Origin: Lachnospiraceae bacterium | GTDB lineage: Bacteria > Bacillota > Clostridia > Lachnospirales > Lachnospiraceae | Reading direction: 5' to 3' | NCBI GenBank assembly: GCA_045617045.1 | Contig: JAZLHV010000046.1 | Coordinates: 2,325 to 66,324 of the forward strand | DNA length: 64,000 nt | Shown here: positions 14,700 through 47,299 of the stretch, in pieces | How the letters are laid out: each line of letters starts with the position of its first letter | Numbering within the stretch: position 1 is the stretch's first letter | Notes under the pieces: generated by a model | Seen by the model: the letters and a program-made list of their open reading frames with translations, nothing else | Told to the model about the DNA's origin: nothing | The model's database searches: none | Position numbers and translations under genes: made by a program

Positions 14700-14706
14700 T
14701 AAAGAA

Positions 14707-14741
14707 AAGCCTACAAATCAACGTTTGTAGGCTCTTTTTTT
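14707..14741 (+). terminator. Phage-supplied terminator for the tRNA operon
   Basis: agcctacaaa/tttgtaggct stem then a T-run, just inside attL. Confidence 0.8.
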
Positions 14742-14815
14742 GCTTAAAAACCGCACTTTCAAAAGGGTACTTTTACAACGTATTTACGCACTTTACAACG
14801 TATAGTTGTAAAATC

Positions 14816-14837
14816 TCACGCCACGCTTCACGCCACG
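14816..14837 (+). promoter_or_regulatory. Putative integrase arm-type sites (left arm)
   Basis: tcacgccacg twice with 12-bp period; the same pair recurs at 47232-47253; tttacaacgtat is also repeated twice within 14771-14813. Confidence 0.7.
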
Positions 14838-14844
14838 AAATTGT

Positions 14845-15834
14845 TTAAAAAATAGATTTCCATACTTCTGCGGAAATCTCCCTTTTGCCTTTATCGGTTT
14901 TTGTTTTCATTGCGTGAGCATACACTTCTTTTAATGTGGTATCAGTTTCCCACCCACCAAGATACATTACATCTTTCATCGGCACGTTTTGTGACAACAA
15001 TTTGCTTGCGAAGTAATGGCGCAGCTTGTGGATTGAAAAATTGTTAATGCCGAGTTCGTTTTGTGTCCGCAACAGGTAATTGGATATGCTCTGTGGACTA
15101 CCATTATATATATATCCCTGTTTGCGTATTGCATCTGCTATCTCCGGGGCAATTGGTATCGTTCTTGTAGAAGATGTTGTCTTGGTTGATTTTACAACCC
15201 ATTTATTCTTAATGTCTTCCACAAGTGCCTTGTCTATGGTAAGCATATTATCGTCTGCCAAATCATCAACAGTAAGAGCGCAGATTTCGGAACGCCTTAA
15301 GCCATTACAGGCTAATCCGATCGGAATATAAAACATTGTGTCTTGCGAACACGCCAATATCCTTTTGACTTCTTCGTCTGTGGGTATATAAGGCTCTTTT
15401 TTGACCTTTTGGGGCAATGTAACACGAAACTTGACATCTTGCCTATGGAAACCCAAAACCGATGAAATAAAGCCATTTAGCGAGCGTACTGTTTTAGGTG
15501 CTTTAGTCTTCGCAAGTTCGTTTACACACTTCTGCACATCTGATTGCGTTATTTCTGCTATATCCAATTTGATAAACCACGAAGGTAGTCTACCAATGTA
15601 TAGCGTATACTCTCGTATGGAACGTGGAGACAGGACATTCTTTTTTGCTTCGATATACTCTTTACAAGCGTGTTGAAACGAGCCTTGGCGTTCTACCTTC
15701 TTGCCTATCTTTTGATTAATTAATCGAAGTGCTTCCGTCTGGGATGGTTTGTCTTTGACAGTAACAGAGTATGTCTTTCCATCTACAACGTGCCGGATGC
15801 GATAACTTCCACTTGGTAACTTTTGAATGTACAT
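14845..15834 (-). CDS. int: Tyrosine integrase
   Basis: GLRRSEI (R), KT (K), HKLRH (HxxR), LGGW (H/W), EVYAH (Y); start chosen from the RBS before MYIQK. Confidence 0.95.
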   Translation of the reverse strand: MYIQKLPSGSYRIRHVVDGKTYSVTVKDKPSQTEALRLINQKIGKKVERQGSFQHACKEYIEAKKNVLSPRSIREYTLYIGRLPSWFIKLDIAEITQSDVQKCVNELAKTKAPKTVRSLNGFISSVLGFHRQDVKFRVTLPQKVKKEPYIPTDEEVKRILACSQDTMFYIPIGLACNGLRRSEICALTVDDLADDNMLTIDKALVEDIKNKWVVKSTKTTSSTRTIPIAPEIADAIRKQGYIYNGSPQSISNYLLRTQNELGINNFSIHKLRHYFASKLLSQNVPMKDVMYLGGWETDTTLKEVYAHAMKTKTDKGKREISAEVWKSIF

Positions 15835-15990
15835 AAACTCACCTTCTTTCTCACACTTTTTTAAATTAAAAAGTTTCATTTTGTGTGGCGCACCACATTT
15901 TCTTGTGACTCATTCAGCGAATAAAATTAAGTGACTTTTCACAGTTGACTTATATTTTGTAACAAGCGTTATTTGTATATATTTCCGATA

Positions 15991-16019
15991 TTGAAACATA
16001 CAAACATTTGTTCTAATAT
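15991..16019 (+). promoter_or_regulatory. Putative promoter with a LexA-box-like site in the spacer
   Basis: TTGAAA-N17-TAATAT; AAAC-attt-GTTC at 16002-16013 is one mismatch from the Firmicute GAAC-N4-GTTC box. Confidence 0.5.
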
Positions 16020-16042
16020 ACAAGCACAAAGGGGATGATGCT

Positions 16043-16165
16043 ATGGACAACATCAATGTAACAATTGAGCAATTAAAGGGAGAAATCTGTAAATTGATAA
16101 CTGATTGCAATAACCTTCAATTGCTTAAAACAATTTATTGCTTTTTGTTAAGGCTTAAAAAGTGA
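16043..16165 (+). CDS. 40-aa small protein convergent with the repressor (candidate antirepressor)
   Basis: RBS aaagggga; MDNINVTIEQLKGEICKLITDCNNLQLLKTIYCFLLRLKK; below the ORF-track cutoff. Confidence 0.6.
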   Translation: MDNINVTIEQLKGEICKLITDCNNLQLLKTIYCFLLRLKK

Positions 16166-16482
16166 ACAAAATCGTATGCCGATTTTCTGTCTTTCGGAGA
16201 TAGCGTTTGTAATTCCTTAATACAGGCTTGCAAATCGTTATCTTCGTAAACATCGGCTAACAAGGTGCCGAGTTCTTCTTCGCTATCCCAACCCATTAGG
16301 TATCCCGGAGAACAGTTGAGAACTCGTGCCAAGTCTTCTATCTTATCAATTCCCATATTCTTAATGTCTTTTGACTCATAACGTGATACTGTACTTTCGG
16401 CAATACCCAAGGCACTCGCTACATCCTTAAGAGTTAATCCAAGTTCTTGTCTTCGTGCTTTAATGATTTTATATATCTCCAT
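16135..16482 (-). CDS. CI-like XRE repressor, 115 aa, without an S24 peptidase domain
   Basis: IKARRQELGLTLKDVASALGIAESTVSRYES...LARVLNCSPGYLMGW; RBS ggaggtg; divergent from the cro-like gene. Confidence 0.9.
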   Translation of the reverse strand: MEIYKIIKARRQELGLTLKDVASALGIAESTVSRYESKDIKNMGIDKIEDLARVLNCSPGYLMGWDSEEELGTLLADVYEDNDLQACIKELQTLSPKDRKSAYDFVHFLSLNKKQ

Positions 16483-16540
16483 ATAAAACACCTCCTGTAA
16501 GCGCATAATAACACTATTCTTGATTAAATGCAAAAATAAT

Positions 16541-16870
16541 TTGCGAAAACACAAAAAATATTATTGACAAAATGCATTTTAGATGTATGATGTATTTAGG
16601 ACTTGCGGATACGCAAGTTACTATACAGAAAGGGGTGCATTATGGTTAACACAAATATGTTGAAGGCGAAATATATGCTTAAAGGGTTAACACAGGAAGA
16701 AGTTGCCGATAAAATCGGCATAAATCCAAGCACATTGAGTCTTAAACAGAACAACGAGCCGGGATATGTTTTCTCTATTGCAGAAGTTGAGAAACTTGCA
16801 AAAGTTCTCAACATCAGTAAAAGGGAACTTACGGCAATTTTTTTTGCTTAAAAACTTGCGGAAACGCAAG
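16541..16870. promoter_or_regulatory. Lysis/lysogeny switch: palindromic operators and rightward promoter
   Basis: TTGCG-N4-CGCAA at 16601-16618 (acttgcg-gata-cgcaagt) and 16855-16870, imperfect copy at 16541-16554; TTGACA 16564-16569 and TATGAT 16586-16591. Confidence 0.75.
16642..16851 (+). CDS. Cro-like XRE HTH protein
   Basis: MVNTNMLKAKYMLKGLTQEEVADKIGINPSTLSLK. Confidence 0.85.
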   Translation: MVNTNMLKAKYMLKGLTQEEVADKIGINPSTLSLKQNNEPGYVFSIAEVEKLAKVLNISKRELTAIFFA

Positions 16871-16881
16871 AAGGGGTTGAA

Positions 16882-17127
16882 ATGCCAAGGGTAAATTTAA
16901 ACAAGCGCAAGTACAAAATATCGGATTTCAGTAAATGGCTTAAAGGCGAAATGTTCGCACAGGGGTTAACGCAGACTTATGTAGCTGCGGAATTGGGTAC
17001 AAGTCAACAGAATTTCTCTAAAAAGTTAAAGTCAAGTGATTTTTCTTACAAAGAACTTCTTACGATTTTCCAATTGTTACAGACCGATGATTTAACGATT
17101 TGCAGATTAATGAAGGAGTCAAAATGA
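16882..17127 (+). CDS. XRE-like HTH protein
   Basis: GLTQTYVAAELGTSQQNFSKKLK. Confidence 0.8.
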   Translation: MPRVNLNKRKYKISDFSKWLKGEMFAQGLTQTYVAAELGTSQQNFSKKLKSSDFSYKELLTIFQLLQTDDLTICRLMKESK

Positions 17128-17660
17128 AAAATTTAATATTGAGCGTTCTCTTAAGCGGTTTGGTGGTTTTCTTGAAAATTGATGATTACTACTCTCGCCA
17201 ATATATCGAGTACGCAGAACAAGAGCCAAGTGTTTATCTTCCGATCAATGAACAGGTGCTTGCAGATATCCCGGAGATTGAAACCCAAGAGACAGAGACA
17301 AAGACCTTAAGTGATGAAGATTTCGAATTAATCGCAAGGGTGGTAATGAGCGAAGCAAGTATATGCGACATCAACGTAAAAGTGGCAATAGCGCAGACAG
17401 TAATTAATCGTTGGTTGTCGGGCAAATGGGGAGAGACGATTGCTGATGTTGTATATTATCCCAATGCCTTTTCGACACAAGACAACGGAGATGTAACCGA
17501 GAGATGTAGATATGCGGTTACTGTTGCTATCGAAGATATGCCGTATCCCGAAGATATGTACTACTTTCGCACAGGGCATTATCACAATTTTGGTTATGAC
17601 TACGCACAGGTAGGTCAATTTTATTTTTCAACGGAAGGAGCGAACGATGGGAACAATTGA
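17124..17660 (+). CDS. SleB-like cell wall hydrolase (Hydrolase_2) with N-terminal hydrophobic anchor
   Basis: LIARVVMSEA, VAIAQTVINR, DVVYYPNAFS, YYF...GQFYF. Confidence 0.75.
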   Translation: MKNLILSVLLSGLVVFLKIDDYYSRQYIEYAEQEPSVYLPINEQVLADIPEIETQETETKTLSDEDFELIARVVMSEASICDINVKVAIAQTVINRWLSGKWGETIADVVYYPNAFSTQDNGDVTERCRYAVTVAIEDMPYPEDMYYFRTGHYHNFGYDYAQVGQFYFSTEGANDGNN

Positions 17661-17835
17661 AATTAGGCGTTTAAGAGAACAGACACGAGCAATGACAGAT
17701 GAACAGTTAAACATTGTTGTCGAAGAGATACCGAGTTCTATCCTGTTTCTTGAATTAATGAGACGAGATGCAGAAAAGGACACAGTAATTAATCAAATTA
17801 AGAACGCTACACAGATATTGAAGGGAGACGAGTAA
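17647..17835 (+). CDS. Phage hypothetical protein
   Basis: 62-aa ORF with RBS, coupled to its neighbours. Confidence 0.7.
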   Translation: MGTIEIRRLREQTRAMTDEQLNIVVEEIPSSILFLELMRRDAEKDTVINQIKNATQILKGDE

Positions 17836-18320
17836 TGACTTTACGTGAATTAACACAAGATATGCTCGACATCTTGGCATTAGCCGAAGAAGGCGAGTTA
17901 GACGAAGAAGCATTGAAAGATACCTTTGAAGGTGTCGAAGGTGCTTTCGAAGATAAGTGCGATGGATATGCAGAAGTTATCGCAGAACTTAACGCAGATG
18001 CGGACAAATTGAAAGCAGAGATTAAAAGACTTACCGAGCGCAAATCGACCATTGAGAACAACATTTCCAAAATCAAATCAAATCTTGAATTTGCAATGCG
18101 TACTGTCGGTAAGGAAAAGTTTAAGACCGAGATGCACAGTTTTGGTATCCAAAAGAATGGTGGTTTAAGACCGCTTCTCATTACAGGTTTTGTACCGATG
18201 GAGTTTTACACAACCCCGGAGCCTGTTGTAGACAACAACAAAGTGCGAGAGTTCCTAAAAGACAACACTTGCGAATGGGCAGAACTTGGAGAATACGGCA
18301 CACACTTAACAATTAGATAG
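17835..18320 (+). CDS. Siphovirus Gp157-family protein
   Basis: LKDTFEGVEGAFEDKCDGYAEVIAELNADADKLKAEIKRLTERK coiled coil in the recombination module. Confidence 0.85.
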   Translation: MTLRELTQDMLDILALAEEGELDEEALKDTFEGVEGAFEDKCDGYAEVIAELNADADKLKAEIKRLTERKSTIENNISKIKSNLEFAMRTVGKEKFKTEMHSFGIQKNGGLRPLLITGFVPMEFYTTPEPVVDNNKVREFLKDNTCEWAELGEYGTHLTIR

Positions 18321-18333
18321 GGGGATTTGAATA

Positions 18334-18939
18334 ATGGCAATTTTACAGAAGTTAGCAGACATACAAGACAGATTATTTGTACCGAAGAGCAACGTTAACG
18401 ATTTCGGTCACTACAATTATCGTTCCTGTGAAGACATCTTAAAAGCGGTAAAGCCTATCTGCAAGGAACTTGGATGCGTTCTCTATATCACCAATGACCT
18501 TGTGGAGATTGGCAACAGAAATTATGTATCAACAACAGTAACACTCGCAGACATTGAAACAGGCGAAAGCGTTGTATCAACCGCACACGCTCGTGAAGAA
18601 GAAACCAAAAAGGGTATGGATGGCTCGCAGATAACCGGGGCATCAAGTTCCTACGCAAGAAAGTATGCGCTTGCCGGACTTTTCTGCATCGACAACGAGC
18701 AAGACTCCGATGCAACCAACAAGGGTGACAAGACCGAAAGCAAAGACTTGTCAAAGACGATGCTTGTAGACAAAGGACACATTGCAACCATCAAAGCGCA
18801 GCTTGAAGAAAAAGGCATTAACGAAAAGAGTTTCTTCATTTGTCTTGGCAAACAGGTAGGCAGAAAGATAAGCACTTTTGAAGAAATCACAATTCACGAG
18901 TTCAAGGTTGCGATGGAAATGTTTGGGGCAACAAAATGA
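18334..18939 (+). CDS. erf: ERF-family ssDNA annealing recombinase
   Basis: YNYRSCEDIL, QITGASSSYARKYALAGLFCID...DSD. Confidence 0.9.
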   Translation: MAILQKLADIQDRLFVPKSNVNDFGHYNYRSCEDILKAVKPICKELGCVLYITNDLVEIGNRNYVSTTVTLADIETGESVVSTAHAREEETKKGMDGSQITGASSSYARKYALAGLFCIDNEQDSDATNKGDKTESKDLSKTMLVDKGHIATIKAQLEEKGINEKSFFICLGKQVGRKISTFEEITIHEFKVAMEMFGATK

Positions 18940-19460
18940 CGTTTAAAGCCAAATTTAAGGACATTACGAGAGAGTGGAACAACAACATAATTAACATCAC
19001 ATTTTCTCTTCTTGACGGCAATTTGAACGAAATAAACGGCATCCAAGATAAGACCTTATCGGTTGAAGTTAAGGAGTACAGAAAAAAGCGAAGTCTTGAT
19101 GCAAATGCATACCTTTGGGTGCTTTGTTCGAAGATGGCAGATGCACTTAAGACTTCCAAAGATGAAGTGTACGAAGAACTCTTGCAGAGATACGGATACA
19201 TCTACAAAGACGAAGACGGATACATCACAGTAACAGTTAAAGCCTGTGTCGATATGTCGAAGATACAAGGACATTGGAAGTTCTACAAAGGCAATGACAC
19301 ATTTTCAAGTTACTTAATGATTAAAGGCACTTCCGAGTATGACACAAGCGAAATGGCACACTTTCTCGATATGGCAATTTTGGAAGCACAGGCACTTGGA
19401 ATTGAGACCGAGACACCCAATGAAATTGAGAGGATGAAAGCACTATGGGGAAAAGGTTAA
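18936..19460 (+). CDS. NinB-like recombination accessory protein
   Basis: KKRSLDANAYLW and TSEYDTSEMAHFLD motifs. Confidence 0.55.
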   Translation: MTFKAKFKDITREWNNNIINITFSLLDGNLNEINGIQDKTLSVEVKEYRKKRSLDANAYLWVLCSKMADALKTSKDEVYEELLQRYGYIYKDEDGYITVTVKACVDMSKIQGHWKFYKGNDTFSSYLMIKGTSEYDTSEMAHFLDMAILEAQALGIETETPNEIERMKALWGKG

Positions 19461-19741
19461 CAAGCGTTTTTACAGATGATTTAGACCATTGCTATTACAC
19501 AGGCTCTCCGATCGTGGAGAGACATCACATTTTCGAAGGTAGGCAAGGTAATAAACCCAAGAGCGAAAAGTACGGATTTATCATTCCACTTCGCCCGGAC
19601 TTACACCCAAATGGTGCTTATGCATCACAACAAGGAAGAGACTTGGACAGACCATTAAAGCAGATGGCACAACGCTATTACGAAGCGCATTACGGCACAC
19701 GAGAACAGTTTATTGAAGAATTTGGAAAATCTTATTTATAA
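19445..19741 (+). CDS. Putative small HNH-like/Zn-binding nuclease
   Basis: CYYTG...HHIF.G...LRPDLH pattern typical of nin-region nucleases. Confidence 0.5.
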   Translation: MGKRLTSVFTDDLDHCYYTGSPIVERHHIFEGRQGNKPKSEKYGFIIPLRPDLHPNGAYASQQGRDLDRPLKQMAQRYYEAHYGTREQFIEEFGKSYL

Positions 19742-19752
19742 GGAGACTAAAA

Positions 19753-20157
19753 ATGAACAAAGTTATTTTAATGGGTAGAGCAACACGAGATGCAGAAGTG
19801 CGTTACTCACAAGACAATAAGGCAATTGCAAAGTACACACTTGCCGTTGACAGAATTAAAAAACAGGGCGAAGAGAGTGCAGATTTCATCAATTGCGTTG
19901 CTTTTGATAAAGCCGGAGAGTTTGCAGAAAAGTACATCCGCAAGGGTACAAAGTTACTTGTTAGCGGTCATATACAGACAGGCTCGTACACCAACAAAGA
20001 CGGACAGAAAGTTTATACAACAGATGTAATTATCGAAACACAAGAATTTGCAGAGTCAAAGAGTGCAGACAGTTCCGCAACTACAACACCCAATGGATTT
20101 ATGAATATCCCGGAAGGCGTAGACGAAGAATTACCCTTTGCACAACCTAACCGCTAA
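19753..20157 (+). CDS. ssb: Single-stranded DNA-binding protein
   Basis: MNKVILMGR, ADFINCVAF, GSYTNKDGQKVYTT, acidic tail EELPF. Confidence 0.95.
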   Translation: MNKVILMGRATRDAEVRYSQDNKAIAKYTLAVDRIKKQGEESADFINCVAFDKAGEFAEKYIRKGTKLLVSGHIQTGSYTNKDGQKVYTTDVIIETQEFAESKSADSSATTTPNGFMNIPEGVDEELPFAQPNR

Positions 20158-20177
20158 TCATTTAAGGGGGAATAACA

Positions 20178-20471
20178 ATGGCAGATAAAAGACACATACG
20201 AGACCTTGTGCATCTTATCTTGATACAGAACACGAAGGCACGAAATAGTGACCGCTTTTTATATTGCGAAGTGGTTAAGAGACTTAATCCCGAATTGGCA
20301 CATAAGCCTTTTACCGAAGCAATGATGAACGCAAACATACCCAATATGGAAACTGTGAGACGTTCCAGAGCGTTACTACAAGCGAAGTTCGAACACTTAA
20401 GACCTTCTTCCGATGTTGAAGCAATGCGGTCACTTCAAGAAGAAGAGTACAGGCATTTCGTGAAGGATTAG
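20178..20471 (+). CDS. Phage hypothetical protein
   Basis: 97-aa ORF with RBS. Confidence 0.7.
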   Translation: MADKRHIRDLVHLILIQNTKARNSDRFLYCEVVKRLNPELAHKPFTEAMMNANIPNMETVRRSRALLQAKFEHLRPSSDVEAMRSLQEEEYRHFVKD

Positions 20472-20473
20472 CA

Positions 20474-21780: not shown

Positions 21781-21783
21781 ATA

Positions 21784-21948
21784 ATGAAAGAAAAAAGCGT
21801 TACAAAGACCATTGAAGAAGTAAAAGAAGAAATCTGCGACAAGTATTGCAAGTTCATTGCCGAGTTTAACAAAGGGGAAAAGACAGATGCCGAGTTTTTG
21901 ACATTTTTGGAAGAACATTGCGAAGTCTGTCCGTTAAACAAACTATGA
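21784..21948 (+). CDS. 54-aa Cys-containing phage protein
   Basis: MKEKSVTKTIEEVKEEICDKYCKF...HCEVCPLNKL, read manually. Confidence 0.65.
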   Translation: MKEKSVTKTIEEVKEEICDKYCKFIAEFNKGEKTDAEFLTFLEEHCEVCPLNKL

Positions 21949-22613
21949 AGACACTTGAAGGACAGATAGGTTTATTTGATTTTCAACCCGATCTAAAAAC
22001 ACAACCGCAGATTAGTAAGCAAGAACAAGCAAGACAGGAAAAGAAAGACAAGGCTTTGTTCCAAGAGCAGAAACAAGATGCTTGGGATAGGACACACCCA
22101 CAGAACATAGAGCCAAACGGCATACTACCTTGTGAGAATTGCGGTGGTATTCCAAGAATTGAGCAATTTTCAGTATCCGATGCGAGATTTTCTGTTGTCT
22201 GCGAATGTGGTGTTGAGTCAGTTAGGAATCCGGGAAGTTGGCTTGACCTGTCAAACACAAGGCAAGAAGCAATAGACCATTGGAACAAAGGATACCGCAG
22301 AATGAATCCACTACAAGACGGAACAAAGCGCACACACGATGAAATGTTTAAGTGGGATTTCGACACGTACAGAAGTTGTCCGCAGATGCTTTCAATGTTT
22401 AAACGAGTGCTTAACAAGGCAACACAGAAAGTGTGCGAGTGCTACTACCAAATAGAGCAACCAAGAGTGTGGATGCCGAAACCTTGCATACAGGTAAATG
22501 AAAAGAGAAACGGATACATCTCTGTACATCAGTATCAAACCATAGCTGCGCTTGTTGAAGAGTGGGATTTTCCAGAATTGGAACAATGGGCGAGAGAACA
22601 TTACGAAGGGTAG
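21945..22613 (+). CDS. Protein with a Lar-like (restriction alleviation) zinc-finger domain
   Basis: LPCENCGG...VVCECG...QEAIDHWN matches the Lar_restr_allev pattern. Confidence 0.6.
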   Translation: MKTLEGQIGLFDFQPDLKTQPQISKQEQARQEKKDKALFQEQKQDAWDRTHPQNIEPNGILPCENCGGIPRIEQFSVSDARFSVVCECGVESVRNPGSWLDLSNTRQEAIDHWNKGYRRMNPLQDGTKRTHDEMFKWDFDTYRSCPQMLSMFKRVLNKATQKVCECYYQIEQPRVWMPKPCIQVNEKRNGYISVHQYQTIAALVEEWDFPELEQWAREHYEG

Positions 22614-22619
22614 GAAATA

Positions 22620-23332
22620 ATGAAGATAAGAAAAGTACATTGCTTATTCGAGCAAAGCGGAACGTTTAAAAACGAGTTTATCAAATTGGGAGTTCCGGCA
22701 GAAGATTACGATATCCAAAACGAGTTTGGACAGACCGACCACATCATTGACTTGTTTACAGAAATTCGGGGGGGGGGTATGACGGAAAGCCTTCTATATT
22801 CGATGAAATGACACAGGATGATTTGATTATGGCGTTCTTCCCTTGCATACGATTTGAAAATCAAATAAACATTTCGCTTCGTGGACAAGCACACGGAATG
22901 GAGAATTGGACAGACAAGCAGAAAGTAGAAAACTGTATGCGGATACAAAACGAAGTGAACGAATTTTATCAATTGGTTAGCAAATTGTTTCTTCTCTGCG
23001 AAGAAAAAGGGTTGCGAATGATTTTAGAAAATCCTTATAGCAAGGAGCATTACTTACAACGTTATTGGTGCATACAACCAAGCATCATAGATATGGACAG
23101 AACGGAGCGCGGGGATTACTTCGTTAAGCCTACACAATTTTGGTTTTTCAATTGCGCTCCAGAGCAGAACGTTATTTTCGAGGTAATTTCCATTAACGCC
23201 CTTGGCGTTGGCGAAGACAGATTGAGTAAAGCACATTGCAACAAAATTGGCAAAGACGTTTCGATTAAGACCGCCCGATCAATGATACATCCACACTATG
23301 CTAACAGATTTATTAGGGAGTTTATTTTATGA
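22620..23332 (+). pseudogene. DNA cytosine-C5 methyltransferase-like gene split by a frameshift at G10 (22768-22777)
   Basis: CLFEQSG (motif I-like) upstream; FFPC (catalytic PC), ENP and KPTQFW downstream; YDGKPSIFDEMTQ continues in the shifted frame; G8 or G11 would fuse the halves. Confidence 0.75.
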
Positions 23333-23821
23333 AGGACTTAATTATTAAGCCTATATCACTAAAAGATGCAAACGCTTATGTAGAAGAAAACCATAGACAC
23401 CACAGGAAGACACAAGGACACAAATTTAGCATTGGCGTTTTTTCGGGGGGGGGTGCTACGTGGCGTTGCGATAGTTGGAAGACCATTATCAAGACATCTT
23501 GACGATGGAGAAACATTAGAAGTCTTGCGGTTATGCACAGACGGAACATACAACGCTTGCTCCATCCTATATGGCAGATGCGCAAAGATTTCAAAGGATA
23601 TGGGTTATCACAAAATCATTACTTACATTTTGGAAGAAGAACAGGGAACATCCCTTAAAGCAAGTGGGTGGACTCTTGAAGAAGAAAACGTAGGTGGTGG
23701 AAGTTGGGAAAATTGCTCACGCAGAGAAGATGACAGAACGTATCAGCAAATGACACTATTTTCCGAGCGTGAGAAGTACCCAATCGGTAAAAAGAAAAGG
23801 TATTCACGAATTTTAGATTAA
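23329..23821 (+). pseudogene. XF1762-family (GNAT/Mom-like) gene split by a frameshift at G9 (23445-23453)
   Basis: KPISLKDANAYVEENHRHH...GHKFSIGVF, then VLRGVAIVGRP...LEVLRLCTDGTYNACSILYG...ITY.L..E.GTSLKASGW in the +1 frame; G8 restores the frame. Confidence 0.75.
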
Positions 23822-25221: not shown

Positions 25222-25418
25222 ACGAAAACAAATGTATCGGTTGCCCCAACTATCAACTTCTGCAAGACACGAATTGGCGTTATTGCAAGGGCAACAAATG
25301 TGAGGTTGAAATCCGAGCAGACGCAATACGGAAATTTGCGGAATACATGAATAATGTAGCACACATTGATGTTAGCGAATATCTGTATTGGTACGAAAAG
25401 GAGCAGACGAATGACTAA
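25218..25418 (+). CDS. Phage hypothetical protein (IRAD paralogue 1)
   Basis: EIRADAIRKFAEY. Confidence 0.65.
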   Translation: MNENKCIGCPNYQLLQDTNWRYCKGNKCEVEIRADAIRKFAEYMNNVAHIDVSEYLYWYEKEQTND

Positions 25419-25614
25419 TTTCCATTTTACAAAAAATCCTTTCTTCAGTGACGAGTTGCTCGATGCTTGTAATAAAGACCTCGCAGAATACGAAAATTCA
25501 ATCCGAGCAGACGAAAGACGGAAGTTTGCGGAGTGGTGTAAATCAAAAGGTTATAGTTGTTACGATTGGAGAATGTTAATTGAACAGTACGAAAAGGAGA
25601 GCAACAATGCTTAA
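25411..25614 (+). CDS. Phage hypothetical protein (IRAD paralogue 2)
   Basis: SIRADERRKFAEW. Confidence 0.65.
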   Translation: MTNFHFTKNPFFSDELLDACNKDLAEYENSIRADERRKFAEWCKSKGYSCYDWRMLIEQYEKESNNA

Positions 25615-25834
25615 TTGTAAAGAATGTGATTGCCAAAAAGAATGCAATGCAAGAAGCGAATATGAAGATATTATGCAGACTTGCACAGACTTTAGAGCAT
25701 TTGTGAATGGCATAAGAGCAGACGAAAGAGCAAAGACGATTGAGGAATTTGCTCAAAACCTTAAGTTAAAAACACATATGGAGAATAGATTAATCGACAT
25801 CCTTGCCGAGCAAATGAAAGGGGAGGACAAATGA
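25607..25834 (+). CDS. Phage hypothetical protein (IRAD paralogue 3)
   Basis: GIRADERAKTIEEFAQ. Confidence 0.65.
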   Translation: MLNCKECDCQKECNARSEYEDIMQTCTDFRAFVNGIRADERAKTIEEFAQNLKLKTHMENRLIDILAEQMKGEDK

Positions 25835-26031
25835 AAATTGAAACATTCCGAGTGCGACAGTATTCAAGCAAGAAAGTAACAGTAATTTGCGTTGACGGAA
25901 AGCCTTTTTGTACGGCAAGGGGAAATAATACCATTGCAAAAATCATCGGCAGACTTAACGGCTACAATACCGACCTTACAGACAAGGCACTTGAAAGTGA
26001 TATTGACAATTTTATCGGAATTAAGAAGTAG
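25831..26031 (+). CDS. Phage hypothetical protein
   Basis: 66-aa ORF, RBS gggagga. Confidence 0.65.
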   Translation: MKIETFRVRQYSSKKVTVICVDGKPFCTARGNNTIAKIIGRLNGYNTDLTDKALESDIDNFIGIKK

Positions 26032-26043
26032 AGGTGAAAGCAG

Positions 26044-26328
26044 ATGAATAAAATACCAAAGAAAATAGTCAAAATGATAGAAGAACGAAACCGACTTAAT
26101 GAAGAAATTGTTGAGTTTGTTAACGAAGAAATTGGAAATGACGTAGATTGGAACACCGACCACGCAGATATAGTAAGCGAAGATAATATTACGGGCAATG
26201 AACAAGGTGACGAGAATTGCCAAGAATGGTGCGACCAAACTATGTGGGGAGAAGATTGCGGTTGCGGATTCTACTATTGGGAAACTGAAGTAAAAGGGAA
26301 AATTTTAAGAATGGACTTTGGATTTTGA
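26044..26328 (+). CDS. Phage hypothetical protein (acidic)
   Basis: 94-aa ORF, RBS gaggtg. Confidence 0.7.
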   Translation: MNKIPKKIVKMIEERNRLNEEIVEFVNEEIGNDVDWNTDHADIVSEDNITGNEQGDENCQEWCDQTMWGEDCGCGFYYWETEVKGKILRMDFGF

Positions 26329-26330
26329 AA

Positions 26331-26632
26331 GGAGAACAAAAATGACAAATAGAGAGGCAGTTAACAGAATAATCGACCATATGGCTGTCCATAAAATGCG
26401 TGAGCCGAGAGCAATTAATATTTCAACCGCATTAAAAATGGCAATCGAGGCACTTGAAAAACAGATACCGAAGAAACCATTGAATGTTATGGAAAGCATA
26501 GAAGATTTGCGTTTCGATTGGACTTGTCCTACTTGCAAAAGACAATTTGTAAATGCACTTTATAGTGTAAATCATTGTGTCGATTGCGGACAAAAACTTG
26601 ATTGGGGGGAGAACAAAAATGACAAATAGAGA
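26331..26632 (+). repeat. 25-bp direct repeat bracketing one gene
   Basis: ggagaacaaaaatgacaaatagaga at 26331-26355 and 26608-26632 (RBS plus first codons). Confidence 0.85.
26342..26629 (+). CDS. Zinc-ribbon phage protein
   Basis: KQIPKKP...CPTC...CVDCGQKLDW. Confidence 0.75.
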   Translation: MTNREAVNRIIDHMAVHKMREPRAINISTALKMAIEALEKQIPKKPLNVMESIEDLRFDWTCPTCKRQFVNALYSVNHCVDCGQKLDWGENKNDK

Positions 26633-27014
26633 ATTTTACGCAGAACAGATTTTGGATATTGCGTGTCAACGTCGTTTATTTGGGGTGGACAAAAAGACGA
26701 ATAACCCTTATGCATGTAGAGCAATGGTGTGTGGAGATTGCACATTCTACGGTAAGCCGGATTGTGCGAAACAGTTTACCGAGTGGTGCAATTCAGAATA
26801 TATCGAGCCTTGTCCTTTTGAAAAAGACGAGTTGGTCGAGGTTTCAGATGACGGAAAAGAATGGCACTTGAGGTTTTTTTCGCACATTGAAAATGGCGTG
26901 TACCATACTGTTTTTGCTTTTCACAAAAGTAATGAAACACCACGCACAACAAAGTGGGGTTTCTGTCAAAAGTACGGAACATTAGGTGGGTTGGTTAAGG
27001 AGAGTGAAGAATGA
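26619..27014 (+). CDS. Phage hypothetical protein
   Basis: MTNREFYAEQILDIAC...VEVSDDGKEWHLRFF. Confidence 0.7.
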   Translation: MTNREFYAEQILDIACQRRLFGVDKKTNNPYACRAMVCGDCTFYGKPDCAKQFTEWCNSEYIEPCPFEKDELVEVSDDGKEWHLRFFSHIENGVYHTVFAFHKSNETPRTTKWGFCQKYGTLGGLVKESEE

Positions 27015-39782: not shown

Positions 39783-39792
39783 GAGTTAAGTT

Positions 39793-41319: not shown

Positions 41320-41328
41320 GGAGAAATT

Positions 41329-41727
41329 ATGTATAACGGATACTTAATTCAAATCGCAAGCACATACAACATTCCATTAAATGTTATGGTGGCAAGTTCC
41401 TACAAAGTTACTTACTCAACGCTCGACCTTGATAGTTATCGAGATGGTGCCGGAGTGTTGCACAGAAATGCAATAAGACGAGTTCCAACAGTTGAAGTTA
41501 AATTGGACTCGATAAGCGGTAGTACACTCAATGCTATTTTGAGTTCTATTGCAAGCCACTATTTGAACGCAACCGAGAAGAGTGTTAATGCTTCGGTGTT
41601 CATTCCCGAAACAAACGATTACTACAACGGCAAGTTTTACATTCCAGACATTAATCTGTCTATCAGCAAAGTAAGTAACACAGATGTCTACTACGATGAA
41701 GTAACACTTAAGTTTATCGGGTATTAA
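41329..41727 (+). CDS. Distal tail protein (putative)
   Basis: Follows TMP; DSYRDGAGVLHR. Confidence 0.6.
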   Translation: MYNGYLIQIASTYNIPLNVMVASSYKVTYSTLDLDSYRDGAGVLHRNAIRRVPTVEVKLDSISGSTLNAILSSIASHYLNATEKSVNASVFIPETNDYYNGKFYIPDINLSISKVSNTDVYYDEVTLKFIGY

Positions 41728-41736
41728 GGAGCGCAA

Positions 41737-44004
41737 ATGATTGATTATCGGTACGCATCGTTATTCAACGATGATAGCGTAACTAAAAACTTAATATTGC
41801 ACTTTAGTGACGATGTGGAGTTTTCCAATAATGAGATTTTCGAAGAGTCATTAACTCTTCACGAAAGCATTACATCGGGCGAAGAATTAAATTTTGGCGA
41901 AACTGTTGCGAGTACTTTAGAAGTCTCGATTACGAACAAAACAGACTCACTTAAAGGCGAAACCTTTACGGCTATTTTGGTTTTGGATAACCACACAGAC
42001 TATCCATTTACGATCGGAATGTACAAGGTTGTTGAAGATACATTAAGTGCAGACAGAACACGCAGAACACTCACTTGTGAAGATGCTCTTGCAGATGTTA
42101 TCAACACAGATGTTGTCGAGTGGTACAACGGATTGTTTGAAAACTCAACCACTATTTCGCTTGGGGCAATGCGTAGTTCATTAGCTGCGCACTTTGGTTT
42201 AACCGAAGAGTCTGCAACGCTTTGCAATGACTTAATGAGCGTTTCCAAAACTGTTGATGCATCCGAGATGAGTGGTAAAGCGGTACTGTTCGCAATGTGT
42301 CAAATCAATGGTTGTTTTCCGCATATCACGAGAGACAACCACCTTCGCTATATAGTTCTTGGGGTGGTTAATGACAATCCTTACGAAATCGACACATACA
42401 GGTCTTGTATTTACGAAGGGTACAAGTGCAATGCTATAACCCGATTGCAGATTAGAAGCGAAGAAAACGATATAGGCGTTATTGTTGGTGACAATGACAA
42501 CAACGTGTACATTGTCGAAGATAATTTCCTTTTATACGGCAAGGGAACGGAAGAACTTACCACGATTGCCACCAATTTGTACAACGTTATCTCGATACCT
42601 TGGTATAAGCCTTGCGAGATTGAAGTAAGAGCAAACCTGTGCGTAGAAGTTGGAGATGCAATAGAGTTAACCGCAACAGACGGAACAGTAATTAACTCTT
42701 ATTTGCTTGAACGTACCGCAAGTGGAATACAGGCTATTTTCGACACAATAAGGGCAGATGGTAAAGAATATCGTAGCGAAGAATTAAACGGCTATACGAG
42801 TCAAATAAAGGCTTTAAAGGGCAGATATAACGTGCTTGAACGTAGCATTGAAGAAACACGCTCAACAATCGGTCACGTTGAAGAAGGACAAACACTTGTA
42901 TCTATGATATCGCAGACCGCAGAAGGTCTCACAAGCGAAATTATCAATAGACAGGATGCAGACAATAGCGTAAGAGATACGCTTACCCAGACCGCCACAT
43001 CTCTGTCAAACCAAATCGAATATTTGCAGAGAGAGATTGACGGAGAAACAACCCTTTATCACGTTAACGAAGCACCTACTTTGTACAACTATCCGGCGTG
43101 GGATTTCTGTACAAACATTCCCTGTAACAATACTGTACAACTTGGTAATGGTGTTCCTTTTATCTATACCGAAGCAGATTACCAAGCAAACATAAGAGCG
43201 TTGGCGTATGACGATACTAACAACATTTCCTACCGCTTCAAAAAGACCGAAGGTCAATGGGGTTGGATTGCAATAGGTGACTCCGATTACACGTACATAA
43301 TGCAACGCATTTCCGAATTGGAGCAGACAGACGAAAGCATTAGCCTTCGTGTAACGCAGATACAGGGCAACACTTACACCAAGACCGAAACCGAGTCAAA
43401 GATACAGGTAAGTGCAAACGGCATTTTATCAACAGTTAGCCAATCGTACCAATCCAAGAGCGCAGCTACAACGATGCAATCGCAGATAGACCAACAGGCT
43501 AATCAAATAACCGCAAAGGTCTCAAAAACAGGTGGTACGGCATCAAGTTTTGCTTGGAGTTTGACCGATAGTGCATTTACCTTAACGAGTGGCAACAGAC
43601 AAGTATTTAGATGTGATGCAAACGGCATCACAGTAAACGGCTATGCAACCGCTAATGACCTGTCTGCACTATCCCTTGAAGTAAACGGCAAAGCAACGAT
43701 TAGTGATTTATCCGCAGCTACGGCACGAATAAGCAATCTTGAAGTAGACCACGTAAGCGTAGCAAATTTCAATGCGTTGAGTGTTACAGTAAACGGCAAG
43801 GCATCAATTAGCGAAGTATCTGCCGACTCGATTGCATCCAAGGTTGCAAGTTTAGGCTCTTTGTATTGCGCAAGATTTTACTGTAACTCGATTGAGCCAC
43901 AGGAATACTTAAGAGTCCCGGCTGGTGGAGAGTTCTACTTTGGTGATGTCAAGGTAGTAGTACGAAGCATAGGCGGTCAATATGTCTTGGCACTCGATTA
44001 TTAA
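41737..44004 (+). CDS. Baseplate hub/Tal-like tail protein with coiled-coil extension
   Basis: 755 aa; repeated SQTAEGLTSE / IDQQANQITAKV stalk-type segments. Confidence 0.75.
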   Translation: MIDYRYASLFNDDSVTKNLILHFSDDVEFSNNEIFEESLTLHESITSGEELNFGETVASTLEVSITNKTDSLKGETFTAILVLDNHTDYPFTIGMYKVVEDTLSADRTRRTLTCEDALADVINTDVVEWYNGLFENSTTISLGAMRSSLAAHFGLTEESATLCNDLMSVSKTVDASEMSGKAVLFAMCQINGCFPHITRDNHLRYIVLGVVNDNPYEIDTYRSCIYEGYKCNAITRLQIRSEENDIGVIVGDNDNNVYIVEDNFLLYGKGTEELTTIATNLYNVISIPWYKPCEIEVRANLCVEVGDAIELTATDGTVINSYLLERTASGIQAIFDTIRADGKEYRSEELNGYTSQIKALKGRYNVLERSIEETRSTIGHVEEGQTLVSMISQTAEGLTSEIINRQDADNSVRDTLTQTATSLSNQIEYLQREIDGETTLYHVNEAPTLYNYPAWDFCTNIPCNNTVQLGNGVPFIYTEADYQANIRALAYDDTNNISYRFKKTEGQWGWIAIGDSDYTYIMQRISELEQTDESISLRVTQIQGNTYTKTETESKIQVSANGILSTVSQSYQSKSAATTMQSQIDQQANQITAKVSKTGGTASSFAWSLTDSAFTLTSGNRQVFRCDANGITVNGYATANDLSALSLEVNGKATISDLSAATARISNLEVDHVSVANFNALSVTVNGKASISEVSADSIASKVASLGSLYCARFYCNSIEPQEYLRVPAGGEFYFGDVKVVVRSIGGQYVLALDY

Positions 44005-44013
44005 GGAGAACTT

Positions 44014-44208
44014 ATGACGAACACACAAATAATTGAAGCAAGAGTACTTATCGAGAATTTCATAGATGAAAAGGTTGCACAAGGCATCCCGATCGAAGTT
44101 ATGCGTTTAATTGTCGAAAGTACTCTCGCAAAGATAAATAAAGTTGTAGATATCGAAGTCAACAAAGAAATCAAGGCTCAAAAAGAAGAGCAGAAAGAAG
44201 GCAATTAA
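44014..44208 (+). CDS. Phage hypothetical protein
   Basis: 64-aa ORF between Tal and the fibre gene. Confidence 0.65.
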   Translation: MTNTQIIEARVLIENFIDEKVAQGIPIEVMRLIVESTLAKINKVVDIEVNKEIKAQKEEQKEGN

Positions 44209-44924
44209 TGAGTTATACCGAATATGTTAAGCAGACTTGGGATACAACATCATACGTCAATCCAACACGTATGAATCACATCGAAAGCGGAATCAAGTCG
44301 AACTCCGATGGCATCACTTCGCTAAACAATGATTTAGCGACAAATCCGTTAAAGACAGAATATGTGTCATTTAGTGGAGATGTTTTATCGCAAGCACTTT
44401 CGCAAACAAAGTCACTTGTTGTCGGTTTAACCGCAAGCACAACCACTAATCTACCTACAACAGAGAATATGTGGAAATACGCTTATGTAACAGTCAAAAG
44501 ACGTTCTGCGTCACAAATATGGGTTGAGATAGACGCTGAAACAACGGGTATGAAAGCGGTTAACTTTTACAACGGCTCAACGTGGAAAGGGTGGCAAATC
44601 TTTTCGTTTAACTCCGATTTAGCGTATATTTCAACGCAAATAAACACTCAATACGGAAATTTGCTATTTCAAAAGTGGGGCAAAATCGTAACAGTACAAA
44701 ATGTGGGCGACTTACACGATATACCGAATGGTAGTTTCACTTTTAGCTCAATTCCAAGTGGTTACTCTCCAAGAACTGACTTTAACGTTGACGCAAAAAG
44801 ACCCGCGAGTAGTTTTGAAATGCGCTTTCAATTTACCGCAAACGCAATTACTTGCTACAACTATGGTGGTGTCGCAAGCGGTACTGTAAACACTACTTTA
44901 CACGCAACGTATATAACCGCTTAA
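44208..44924 (+). CDS. Tail fibre/receptor-binding protein, expressed orientation (anchor + module A + module B)
   Basis: RMNHIESGI anchor; LNNDL and FNSDL junctions; WKGW knob-like motif; GKIVTV C-terminal domain. Confidence 0.8.
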   Translation: MSYTEYVKQTWDTTSYVNPTRMNHIESGIKSNSDGITSLNNDLATNPLKTEYVSFSGDVLSQALSQTKSLVVGLTASTTTNLPTTENMWKYAYVTVKRRSASQIWVEIDAETTGMKAVNFYNGSTWKGWQIFSFNSDLAYISTQINTQYGNLLFQKWGKIVTVQNVGDLHDIPNGSFTFSSIPSGYSPRTDFNVDAKRPASSFEMRFQFTANAITCYNYGGVASGTVNTTLHATYITA

Positions 44925-45423
44925 ACGTACACAACCCTAATTATTCCCGATAATGCGCCCATACCATACACAAGAATTTCTGTGCTACTAACCTTACATT
45001 CCATTGGACTACTTGACGTTGAGATAACTGTTGCCGAAAGAATTGTACCGCTTATGTTGTGCCTTACCGCCACATAATGCGTAAAAGGTTGAACGTATGA
45101 ATTGGGCGCAAGGGTAAAATTAATATCCGTACTTTTCGGCAAATCGGAGTTTGTCGCAATTTGATGTGCCGTAACGGAATTGCTATCAATGAGAACGTGA
45201 TACGTTGTGTTTGTGCTTGCACTCGATATTGTCATTGATTGAAAGCGTGACGTTGCATAAGTGTATGTGCCAAAATAGTAATCGTGGTCTTGCCATATCG
45301 CACGAAAATTTATGGGTTTTTCATCAGTACCAAGTGCGTTTTTTACCGCTAAAACAAACTCGTTAAACGTATTTGCGATTATGCTCATTGCCTTGTTGTG
45401 TTGCGCAAAATCATTGTTTTACG
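44320..45423. repeat. Four putative recombination sites of a nested inversion locus
   Basis: CG-NN-WAA-[spacer]-TTT-NN-CG: 44320-44339(+) and 45404-45423(-) share spacer CAATGA; 44605-44624(+) and 45137-45156(-) share spacer CTCCGA. Confidence 0.85.
44921..45418 (-). CDS. Silent inverted fibre cassette (module C + module D)
   Basis: Minus-strand frame is open from NNDF (site at 45404-45423) through ATNSDL to a stop overlapping the fibre stop at TTAA 44921-44924; no obvious RBS of its own. Confidence 0.75.
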   Translation of the reverse strand, partial: NNDFAQHNKAMSIIANTFNEFVLAVKNALGTDEKPINFRAIWQDHDYYFGTYTYATSRFQSMTISSASTNTTYHVLIDSNSVTAHQIATNSDLPKSTDINFTLAPNSYVQPFTHYVAVRHNISGTILSATVISTSSSPMECKVSSTEILVYGMGALSGIIRVVYV

Positions 45424-45447
45424 AAAAATTTTAAGGAGATAAACAGA

Positions 45448-45792
45448 ATGAGAAGCATTAAAAAATGTTGCGAGTTAATTCAACTTAACGCATCTGATTG
45501 CGATGTACCTTTGGATAATCCTATTTATGCGCTTTGTACCGAAATTATGAATATTGAAAAGGCGTACAAAGAAGAACATCCCGAAAGCGCAGATTATCGC
45601 AGAGGATTAAGCGAAGGTATTAACAAACATACCGAAATCACAACAGTAGATGCACAATATCTTATTGATTACCTTGAAAATTGGAAGGATGAAAGCAACG
45701 AAGCAATCATACTTACAATTCAAAATGACATCTTAAAAGTTTTTGTAAATCACGAAGCGTTGGAACAGTTTCCGGAAAGCGTGAGCGAATGA
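45448..45792 (+). CDS. Phage hypothetical protein
   Basis: 114-aa ORF with RBS aaggag directly after the invertible locus. Confidence 0.65.
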   Translation: MRSIKKCCELIQLNASDCDVPLDNPIYALCTEIMNIEKAYKEEHPESADYRRGLSEGINKHTEITTVDAQYLIDYLENWKDESNEAIILTIQNDILKVFVNHEALEQFPESVSE

Positions 45793-46199
45793 CAGAGATA
45801 TTAACAACCGCTATCACAGGACTTGTGGCAATCATTGTCTGCGTTCTAAATAACCGAGCAACGATTAAGGCAAGCGAGACAAAGCAGAAAGCAAACCTTG
45901 ATGCCGTAGAGAAGAAATCCAAAGAAGAGACAACTGCATTAAAGGTTGGTGTACAAGCGTTATTAAGGGCGCAGATGATACACGATTACAACAAGTGGAG
46001 TGATGAAGGTTTTGCACCTATTTATGCACGAGAGAATTTTGAAAATTGTTGGAAGGTGTACGAAACGCTTGGGGAAAATGGAGTTATGAACGATATTCAC
46101 GAGAAGTTTAAAAAACTTCCCACAAGAAAACCTGTTTCAAGAAACAATTCGACACAGGTACGCACAAACATTACGCCTGTGTTCGTTGAAAAAGAATAA
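45789..46199 (+). CDS. Membrane-anchored lysis-module protein
   Basis: N-terminal TM segment; GVQALLR...YETLGENGV. Confidence 0.65.
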   Translation: MTEILTTAITGLVAIIVCVLNNRATIKASETKQKANLDAVEKKSKEETTALKVGVQALLRAQMIHDYNKWSDEGFAPIYARENFENCWKVYETLGENGVMNDIHEKFKKLPTRKPVSRNNSTQVRTNITPVFVEKE

Positions 46200-46205
46200 A
46201 GGAGA

Positions 46206-46415
46206 ATGGCTATGAGTATGAAAGAGTATTTAATTGATTTGGCAAAGCGAGTTGTTAAGACCGCAGCTGAAACCGCATTAGGCGTTATTGGTGCAAGTGC
46301 GGTTACGATCGGAGACATTGACTTTAAATTTATGCTTGGTGCGGTGACATTATCTGCCGTATCAACAGTTCTTATCAACCTTGCAAACATTCCTACGAAA
46401 GAAGACCAAAGATAA
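46206..46415 (+). CDS. Holin (r1t-like)
   Basis: DLAKRVVKTAAETALGVIG...IDF...LSAVSTVLINLANIP; two TM segments before the endolysin. Confidence 0.8.
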   Translation: MAMSMKEYLIDLAKRVVKTAAETALGVIGASAVTIGDIDFKFMLGAVTLSAVSTVLINLANIPTKEDQR

Positions 46416-47227
46416 TGTTAAGATATGATATTTTAGCGAAAGCATCCGAGTATATCGGCTTAAAAGAAATCCCAGACAACAACATTATATTCAACACACA
46501 TTATTACGGAAGAGAAGTTAATAGTCCGTCTTATGCGTGGTGTTGTGCTTTTGTTTGGGATATTTTCAGAATGTGCAACGCATCCAAATATTTCTATGGT
46601 GGAAATAAAATGAACGGATGCACAACACTTCTTAATTTCTACAAAAATAATTATCCACATTGGGTACACACAGACATTAACCGAATGAAATCGGGAGACC
46701 TTGTGTTCTATCAGTTCGATGCTGATTATTACGCAGACCACATCGGCATTTTCGATAGCAAGATTTCTGATACACGCTTCTATGCCGTTGAAGGCAACAC
46801 CACAAGTGGCGTGATTGGAGACCAAGCCAACGGATACGGAGTGTATCGTAGAAACAGACCGATGTCTTGCGTTATGGCGTTTGTGAGCATTGAGTTTGAA
46901 GATGACGATACAAAAGCCGTAGAGAAAACGCACAAGGTCAAAAAGGGCGAAACATTGGGTTACATTGCTAATATGTACGGCTCAACAGTTCCGGCAATAT
47001 TAAGCGCAAACCCTTCAATTACAAACGCTAACCTTATCTACGTTAACCAAATTATTGTTATTCCTGTACACGAAGACGAAGCACCCAAAACGTACACAGT
47101 TGTCAAAGGAGACACATTAAGTGGCATTGGCAAGAAATGTGGCGTGGCGTGGCGTGAGATTGCTACGCTAAATGGCATTAGTTTTCCGTACATCATAAGA
47201 CCAAATCAAGTGTTAAGGTTACGATAA
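46415..47227 (+). CDS. Endolysin: CHAP amidase plus two LysM domains
   Basis: WCCAFV (Cys), DHIGI (His), VEGNT; HKVKKGETL and YTVVKGDTLSGIG. Confidence 0.92.
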   Translation: MLRYDILAKASEYIGLKEIPDNNIIFNTHYYGREVNSPSYAWCCAFVWDIFRMCNASKYFYGGNKMNGCTTLLNFYKNNYPHWVHTDINRMKSGDLVFYQFDADYYADHIGIFDSKISDTRFYAVEGNTTSGVIGDQANGYGVYRRNRPMSCVMAFVSIEFEDDDTKAVEKTHKVKKGETLGYIANMYGSTVPAILSANPSITNANLIYVNQIIVIPVHEDEAPKTYTVVKGDTLSGIGKKCGVAWREIATLNGISFPYIIRPNQVLRLR

Positions 47228-47231
47228 CTTT

Positions 47232-47253
47232 TCACGCCACGTTTTACGCCACG
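47232..47253 (+). promoter_or_regulatory. Putative integrase arm-type sites (right arm)
   Basis: tcacgccacg/ttacgccacg with 12-bp period, matching 14816-14837. Confidence 0.7.
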
Positions 47254-47299
47254 AAACCCACAAAGCCTTTAAAATGGCGTTTCTTGGCAATGCGTAGAA

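Follow-up and report, generated by a model that had tools for sequence, protein, structure and literature searches.

A Lachnospiraceae prophage purged of about 31 short words keeps GATC, and AGCT with two exceptions, inside two longer, evenly spaced words

Bacillus phages reportedly lack GGCC and Staphylococcus phage K is said to lack GATC, a palindrome avoidance that the surveys of Sharp 1986 and Rocha 2001 reportedly cover. The temperate Bacillus subtilis phages SPbeta, phi3T, rho11 and SPR carry their own cytosine-5 (C5) DNA methylases of GGCC, GCNGC and other specificities, and isolated sites in T3/T7 DNA are refractory to EcoRII, an enzyme that needs two sites. Here, we describe a prophage in a 64,000-nucleotide stretch of DNA from a Lachnospiraceae bacterium (contig JAZLHV010000046.1, positions 2,325 to 66,324; hereafter the window), in which it occupies positions 14700-47299. 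As in phage palindrome avoidance, words are depleted far below expectation in the phage and not in the host, and the depletion ends at the phage boundaries. The prophage differs from those cases in that about 31 words are purged at once, many of them asymmetric pentamers, that whole dipeptides are eliminated, and that the surviving sites stand in two longer words and are evenly spaced. Restriction avoidance as such is textbook; the scale, the exemption rule and the even spacing are not.

Maximal-order Markov models predicted 115 GATC, 73 AGCT, 34 GGCC, 118 CATG, 72 CGCG and 32 CTAG in the prophage, and the letters held 17, 23, 0, 2, 2 and 0, respectively (observed/expected ratio, O/E, 0-0.32 across the six tetramers). 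A preliminary description of this DNA had reported the absence of GGCC and had proposed that sites were purged by restriction; the count confirmed the former, and the strong Markov-corrected depletion agreed with the latter. To control for codon usage, synonymous codons were exchanged among positions with the protein sequences and the codon usage kept. In genes, such shuffles gave 84 ± 8 GATC (15 observed), 71 ± 8 AGCT (21 observed), 81 CATG (2), 50 CGCG (2), 31 GGCC (0) and 30 CTAG (0), i.e., codon-preserving shuffles yielded 4-40 times more sites than observed. Because the synonymous shuffle failed to reproduce the loss, codon usage was ruled out as its cause. About 27 pentamers were also nearly gone (each expected 22-57 times, O/E 0.06 or less), including CTAAG, GAACC, CTCAG, ACTGG, CCTGA, CCTGC, CTGGC, CGTCC, GCCGC, AGCCC, CCAGG, GGACC, ACAGC, CACTG and ACGAC. 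Together with CTAG, GGCC, CATG and CGCG, these 31 words occurred 24 times against about 1,400 expected, and Type II, IIS and III restriction enzymes typically recognise words of this sort.

The purge was confined to the mobile element. It stopped at the attachment (att) cores, the nearest banned words lying at 14669 on the left and 47386 on the right, and a sliding scan of the whole host genome found no second region of this kind. In the host, O/E was 0.5-1.8 for most banned words, and only CTAG and, partly, GATC were avoided. AAGCTT was found 36 times outside the prophage and never within it. The flanks had been described as rich in GATC and AAGCTT in all contexts, of which the contexts stood and the richness in GATC did not (genome-wide O/E 0.40, with all contexts present). 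Ten of the 24 residual banned words fell in a block of small genes at 25346-26749, probably the most recently acquired prophage DNA and not yet purged.

The purge reached the proteins. We counted, in the prophage genes, the amino-acid pairs that are impossible to encode without a banned word. Gly-Pro (forced word GGNCC), Asp-Pro (GATCC or GACCC) and Trp-Pro (GGCC) were absent against 14, 16 and 3 expected, respectively; His-Gly (CATGG or CACGG) occurred once against 9 expected, and Ala-Ala (GCNGC) 12 times against 44. Ala-Gly was also low (12 observed, 38 expected). Genes in the host flanks were normal for dipeptides (65 Ala-Ala observed, 67 expected). These results show that the phage was purged of about 31 short words, down to its amino-acid sequence, an extreme case of restriction-driven avoidance. 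The breadth of the purge, its sharp att-to-att ends, the failed codon-usage control and the banned words in common with other gut Clostridia phages (see below) all back restriction as the purging force. Our literature search found no paper on restriction avoidance altering dipeptides, nor any on CCGATC or GCAGCT as methylase motifs. The scale of the loss quantifies how strongly the restriction systems of a gut community can constrain protein sequence.

The surviving sites obeyed a strict context rule. All 17 GATC were at the positions listed earlier and, as noted then, all were CGATC or GATCG (11 CGATCG); the actual rule was tighter. Every one sat in CCGATC on one or other strand, with a pyrimidine before it in 17/17 and a purine after it in 16/17, giving the consensus YCCGATCR. 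These sites (family 1, 15316-46312, both orientations) have GATC starting at 15319 (both strands), 17243+, 19510+, 21990+, 23277+, 25150-, 27686+, 29240-, 31659-, 33704-, 34992-, 36055+, 39061-, 41124-, 42012-, 44091+ and 46307-. C followed YCCGAT in 18 of 49 cases, i.e., it was not avoided there, and followed RCCGAT in none of 40; given the frequency of CCGAT, the CCGATC count was near the neutral expectation. ACGATC, TCGATC, GCGATC and TGATC were found only where the far side was GG, and one correct flank on either strand sufficed, as in TTGATCGG, which was retained although TGATC was otherwise absent. Sub-forms of the family were CCGATCGTA/G (seven copies), CCGATCAAT (five copies) and CCGATCGAR (three copies), and the 9-10-mers CCGATCGTAA and CCGATCAAT occurred five times each against about 0.06 expected.

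For AGCT, the preliminary description had counted about 21 sites, all in GCAGCT or AGCTGC except 37628. We found 23, of which 21 have that context, and a second exception at 44745. The 21 sites (family 2, 15021-46268) have AGCT starting at 15023, 16983, 18800, 21061, 22544, 24032, 25199, 27473, 29549, 30623, 31937, 34151, 36109, 36238, 37279, 39138, 40170, 42183, 43464, 43716 and 46265. Every GCNGC in the prophage was GCAGCT: T followed GCAGC in 22/22 cases, and GCCGC and GCGGC were absent. All 12 Ala-Ala pairs were written GCA-GCT or (A)-GCT-GCG, and 11 of the family 2 sites encode them. Since Ala-Ala is still depleted 4-fold, GCAGCT is tolerated but costly. In the host flanks, 6 of 45 GATC were of the CCGATC type and 13 of 127 AGCT of the GCAGCT type. 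No YCCGATC exemption was seen in the host genome, where neither word was enriched (O/E 0.58 for CCGATC and 0.88 for CGCAGCT), which ruled out a host Chi or uptake signal. Within coding DNA, family 1 sites took either orientation and each of the three reading frames, so a fixed reading frame or gene position was ruled out in this prophage. The sites were likewise not part of a longer repeat or mobile element, since their surroundings were unrelated beyond about 10 bp. The allowed vocabulary around CAG/CTG was also very narrow: of 208 GCAG, 184 had A as the next base, CGCAGA was enriched above all other hexamers (63 against 12 expected), and CCAG occurred only as YCCAGA (15 of 17).

Both families were evenly spaced along the prophage. 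Family 1 gaps ranged from 888 to 3006 bp with a coefficient of variation (CV) of 0.29, and none of 200,000 random placements was as regular. Under a stricter null, in which sites were drawn only from positions already bearing the right flanks, the regularity (P = 3e-6), the minimum gap (P = 5e-5) and the maximum gap (P = 0.003) of family 1 remained significant. In family 2, 18 of 20 gaps measured 1032-2549 bp (CV 0.41, P = 2e-5), only two gaps were under 1 kb (P < 3e-6), and the maximum gap was also bounded (P = 4e-4); both closely placed pairs consist of Ala-Ala codons in capsid and tail genes. When 2,330 similarly abundant k-mers were ranked by CV, CCGATC came second-lowest as scored (0.39), a value inflated by the 2-bp gap of the double site at 15319; with that site merged, the CV was 0.29, below every other k-mer. 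GCAGC was among the lowest (0.48). A hard-core model allowed at most 21 packed GATC positions, of which 17 were filled, with an activity of about 3 against about 0.4-0.5 if neutral, and occupancy of the site families was 81-90% of maximal packing. A hand check of positions gave nearest-neighbour distances between the two families as for two independent regular series, and co-location was ruled out. Passive shielding or survival does not predict such even spacing.

Any explanation must cover the fact that GATC, AGCT and GCNGC are tolerated only inside YCCGATCR and GCAGCT, in copies separated by at least about 0.9-1 kb and seldom by more than 2.5-3 kb. Our tentative preference is for a composite, in which shielding or poor cutting makes the two words tolerable, though only in isolation, as the enzymes concerned bridge two sites. 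Sequence-specific modification of one strand, by a methylase with an asymmetric site, could make YCCGATCR and GCAGCT harmless. This methylase might come from the usual hosts of the phage and, for GCAGCT, perhaps from the phase-variable C5-methylase-like enzyme of the phage itself; alternatively to modification, the two words may be intrinsically poor substrates. Survivors do have a common flank, of which one copy suffices (YCCGATC in 17/17 GATC, GCAGCT in 21/23 AGCT), and if this exemption rule reflects modification it predicts a sharp specificity (YCCGATCR and GCAGCT, one flank being sufficient). Protection of the two words would be incomplete, the residual danger coming from enzymes that bridge two copies before cutting (for GATC, Type IIE enzymes of the Sau3AI kind; for GCAGC, Type IIS enzymes, BbvI among them). 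Looping of the DNA between two sites is known for Sau3AI and many Type IIS enzymes, with optimum loops from <75 to about 500 bp (PMC1474071), and isolated sites are refractory to Type IIE enzymes (PMC4081073). An isolated copy would thus escape, and selection would remove copies until the survivors were isolated. Thinning of this kind would leave a near-jammed, evenly spaced set with gaps between a distance d and about 2d, which matches GCAGCT well. Because Ala-Ala cannot be written without GCNGC, the supply of GCAGCT would be forced, which would account for the disappearance of most Ala-Ala pairs as well as for the upper bound on the gaps.

In this respect the prophage resembles the substrates of the two-site Type IIE, IIF and IIS enzymes (EcoRII, NaeI, Sau3AI; PMC4081073, PMC1474071), from which sparse sites escape. 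The survivors are over-dispersed, and their minimum distance of about 0.9-1 kb exceeds the optimal loop sizes that have been measured. The differences are that we propose an evolved, genome-wide spacing of two families under a strict flank rule, read here from the sequence. If the spacing does reflect two-site enzymes, the distance between sites is an evolved anti-restriction trait.

Several points weigh against the composite. No methylase of YCCGATCR or GCAGCT specificity was identified in the host or the phage. The methylase-like gene of the phage is out of frame, and a relative that obeys the CCGATC rule (described below) lacks it. Looping has no sharp fall-off at 1 kb and hence does not quantitatively predict a hard exclusion at 0.9-1 kb. 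Since a synonymous change can always remove a GATC, a site that is only tolerated should become sparse by drift; the filling of 17 of 21 packable positions implies a preference for the site, not mere tolerance. CCGATCGTAA and CCGATCAAT, with five copies each, are longer than typical methylase targets. Finally, the CCAG survivors are limited to one context (YCCAGA), yet are not evenly spaced.

Several of these points lead to the main rival explanation, which we consider possible though rather improbable: the two words could be positively selected sites at which a phage or host machine binds, loads or marks the DNA about once per 1-2.5 kb. Both the lower and the upper bounds on the gaps are significant in either family, packing is close to maximal, two 9-10-mers recur far beyond expectation, and coding DNA carries the sites in all frames and both orientations, all of which a maintained signal would account for. 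It is opposed by the lack of any identified factor or process, and by the orientation of the sites, which was random (P = 0.36-0.5 for the fit to a two-domain pattern). An apparent plus/minus split around pac and att, reminiscent of Chi-like polarity, was not significant. As with Chi sites and polar octamers, a short asymmetric word recurs regularly along a genome; unlike Chi, the prophage words are randomly oriented and are not enriched in the host. The near-neutral frequency of CCGATC given CCGAT, the positions of the sites, which are not conserved in the relative, and the forced Ala-Ala supply, which accounts for the GCAGCT upper bound with no positive selection, also speak against a signal. 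Moreover, were the sites cleavable, purging the other ~100 GATC would gain little. The more specific claim, to which we give slightly less credence still, is that YCCGATCR and (C)GCAGCT are a maintained, ruler-spaced and orientation-free signal, present once per 1-2.5 kb and never closer than about 0.9 kb, in temperate phages of gut and rumen Lachnospiraceae, with lineage-specific GATC words such as GATCTGG in the contig L064 (described below). If this were true, the ruler-spaced words could carry modifications by which a defence or repair machine scanning the DNA recognises it as 'self', and positive selection of the spacing would be a new kind of genome-wide phage signal.

To see how far these features extend, the prophage was compared with other phages. 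A syntenic relative (a 34.3-kb contig from a public run, tiled; 50-77% identical in protein) had 8 GATC against 179 expected, 5 of the 8 in CCGATC, and its survivors were over-dispersed (P = 0.03). Its dipeptide losses were similar (Ala-Ala 5 observed, 44 expected; Gly-Pro 0 observed, 17 expected). It showed no GCAGCT rule, its site positions were not those of the prophage, and it lacked the insertion with the methylase-like and XF1762-family genes. Since the relative obeys the CCGATC rule without the gene, the CCGATC exemption is not due to the methylase-like gene of the phage, which could at most relate to GCAGCT. An unrelated 18-kb contig (L064; IMG/VR UViG 3300020112_000136, 398-16110) had 12 GATC against 80 expected, all of them GATCTGG, 11 in one orientation and frame-locked as GAT-CTG-G (Asp-Leu). 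Its survivors, too, were over-dispersed (P = 0.013), Gly-Pro was low (1 observed, 11 expected), and many of its banned pentamers were common with the prophage. The most enriched 8-mer of this contig, AGATCTGG (10 observed, 0.7 expected), is of the sort expected from a positively selected word.

In four further gut phages (L011, L012, L078 and L158), surviving GATC were mostly GGATC (16 of 19 in L158). Thus context-limited survival of GATC recurs across phages, with the spared words differing. The same observation suits a third explanation, in which there is neither shield nor function: many enzymes with 5-7-bp targets would ban most contexts, and YCCGATCR and GCAGCT would be the uncovered remainder. 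CCAG seems to be such a case, its YCCAGA form (15 of 17) being what stays after bans on ACCAG, CTGGC, CCAGC, CCAGG and ACTGG. We regard this explanation as unlikely for the two families. Many ad hoc words would be needed to ban ACGATCH, TCGATCH, GCGATC and TGATCH and yet spare the same cores with GG on the far side, and neither the even spacing nor the writing of every Ala-Ala with GCAGCT would be explained.

Among 93 fetched loci of related and unrelated phages, the median count of banned words was 4, against 53 in this prophage. Several unrelated gut Clostridia phages shared many of them (ACTGG, CACTG, CCTGA, CCTGC, CTAAG, CTCAG, GCCGC and GGACC), and these common pentamers point to restriction systems spread across the community, not to a peculiarity of one sequence. 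The comparison also bears on whether the pattern is an artefact, arising from misassembly, from a synthetic or designed origin, or from codon usage or composition. The cleanliness of the purge and the regular spacing do look designed. However, att repeats flank the element at a tRNA gene of a metagenome-assembled genome, its synteny, CCGATC exemption and dipeptide losses recur in natural relatives from other samples, and codon-preserving shuffles give many more sites, which makes an artefact hardly credible; for a synthetic or designed origin, the natural att sites and the relatives with the same traits ruled it out. Purging may be fast. The best public large terminase (TerL) match, 80% identical, is on an 8-kb contig (L154; Logan SRR24145995_48619) that has 17 GATC in all contexts; because this close relative does not avoid GATC, the purging of GATC must evolve or recombine quickly. 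A megablast search against phage records gave no close relative, and genomes of the same genus had no close TerL. Whether the even spacing reflects two-site enzymes or positive selection, it is relevant to the design of phages and DNA vectors that cross the restriction barriers of gut Firmicutes, and to inferring from phage sequence alone which defences uncultured hosts possess.

A compact C5-DNA-methylase-like gene lies at 22620-23332 (+), with FEQSG, FFPC and ENP motifs, and is split by a G10 tract at 22768-22777; G11 or G8 would restore the frame. Its pieces align to an abundant family of 237 aa, with intact homologues known, and the three motifs were conserved in 30 homologues. It had no PF00145 match at E <= 0.01. 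An AF2 model of an intact 237-aa member (pLDDT 84.5) had M.HaeIII, DNMT3A/B and M.HhaI as top Foldseek matches in the PDB (E ~1e-4, TM 0.34-0.44), and this predicted structure supports a C5 DNA methylase fold for the family, in line with the C5-methylase-like gene of the preliminary description. Many of the database homologues were truncated to 169-205 aa. The poly-G breaks and the truncated homologues suggest frequent phase variation. As in SPbeta, phi3T, rho11 and SPR, a temperate Firmicute phage has a gene of C5-methylase fold among its early genes, with GGCC and GCNGC at stake. The prophage enzyme differs in belonging to a minimal 237-aa family with no recognisable target-recognition domain or Pfam match, in being apparently phase-variable and off in the assembly, and in that GGCC and GCNGC are purged, not protected.

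The preliminary description had drawn on this gene, or on the enzyme of a previous host, for its own account of the survivors, in which a 5-methylcytosine methylase of CG-containing (GATCG/CGATCG) and GCWGC specificities overlaps and shields them. Every GATC does overlap CG, 11 as CGATCG, the gene has the required fold, and by established enzymology G(m5C)WGC would place a methyl group on the AGCT cytosine of one strand. However, overlap with CG was insufficient, as C never followed RCCGAT, and CGCG, which a CpG methylase would protect, was itself purged. Likewise, GCWGC was purged outside GCAGCT, the exempt word being this 6-mer. The gene as shield fared no better: it is frameshifted, without a PF00145 match and missing in the relative with the CCGATC rule, and three other phages that carry homologues had no GCAGCT rule. 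In the host assembly (94% complete), no match to PF00145 or PF02086 was found, i.e., no C5 or Dam-type methylase. The only visible host restriction-modification system (contig C26:508-2805) comprised an MvaI/BcnI-family endonuclease fused to an HTH domain and a methylase of N4/N6 type with an SPPY motif, and adjoined a UvrD-like helicase. The absence of CCWGG from the prophage fits such a system; neither exempt word does. We therefore judge this form of shielding very improbable.

Downstream of the methylase-like gene, at 23329-23821 (+), lies a putative DNA-modification gene of the XF1762 family (Mom-like), split by a G9 tract at 23445-23453. NF045478 matched both halves (E = 1e-10 and 1.3e-42), and there was a weak match to PF25680 (Mom). 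As a parallel to the Mom adenine modification of phage Mu, it may add, beside the methylase-like gene, a second modification function that broadens protection; it differs in that the Pfam match is weak and N-terminal only, and in being split at the G9 tract. Mom targets (C/G)A(G/C)N(C/T), which does not fit GATC. Upstream, at 21918-22613 (+), a protein weakly matched the zinc ribbon of Lar-like restriction alleviation proteins, below the cut-offs (PF14354, E = 0.0013; TIGR03655, E = 0.004), and the copy in the syntenic relative was 67% identical. Compared with that relative, in which the Lar-like gene abuts a glycosyltransferase gene, positions 22620-23821 are a two-gene insertion of 1.2 kb.

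The element as a whole is a complete temperate siphovirus-type prophage integrated at tRNA-Pro. Its zone of extreme short-word avoidance (14700-47299), drawn from att cores, PHROG matches and banned-word counts, is bounded by 26-bp direct repeats, the att cores, at 14674-14699 (the 3' end of tRNA-Pro) and 47300-47325. PHROG matches included an integrase, a Mu Gam-like protein, Erf, NinB, a DnaD-like loader, large terminase, portal, capsid and tape measure. The host genome is a metagenome-assembled genome of 2.43 Mb in 58 contigs (42% GC), and the nearest relatives of the terminase were in Roseburia, Agathobacter, Acetatifactor and other Lachnospiraceae assemblies. The tRNA-Pro at the att site (14624-14697) has an AGG anticodon according to ARAGORN, which is unusual for bacteria.

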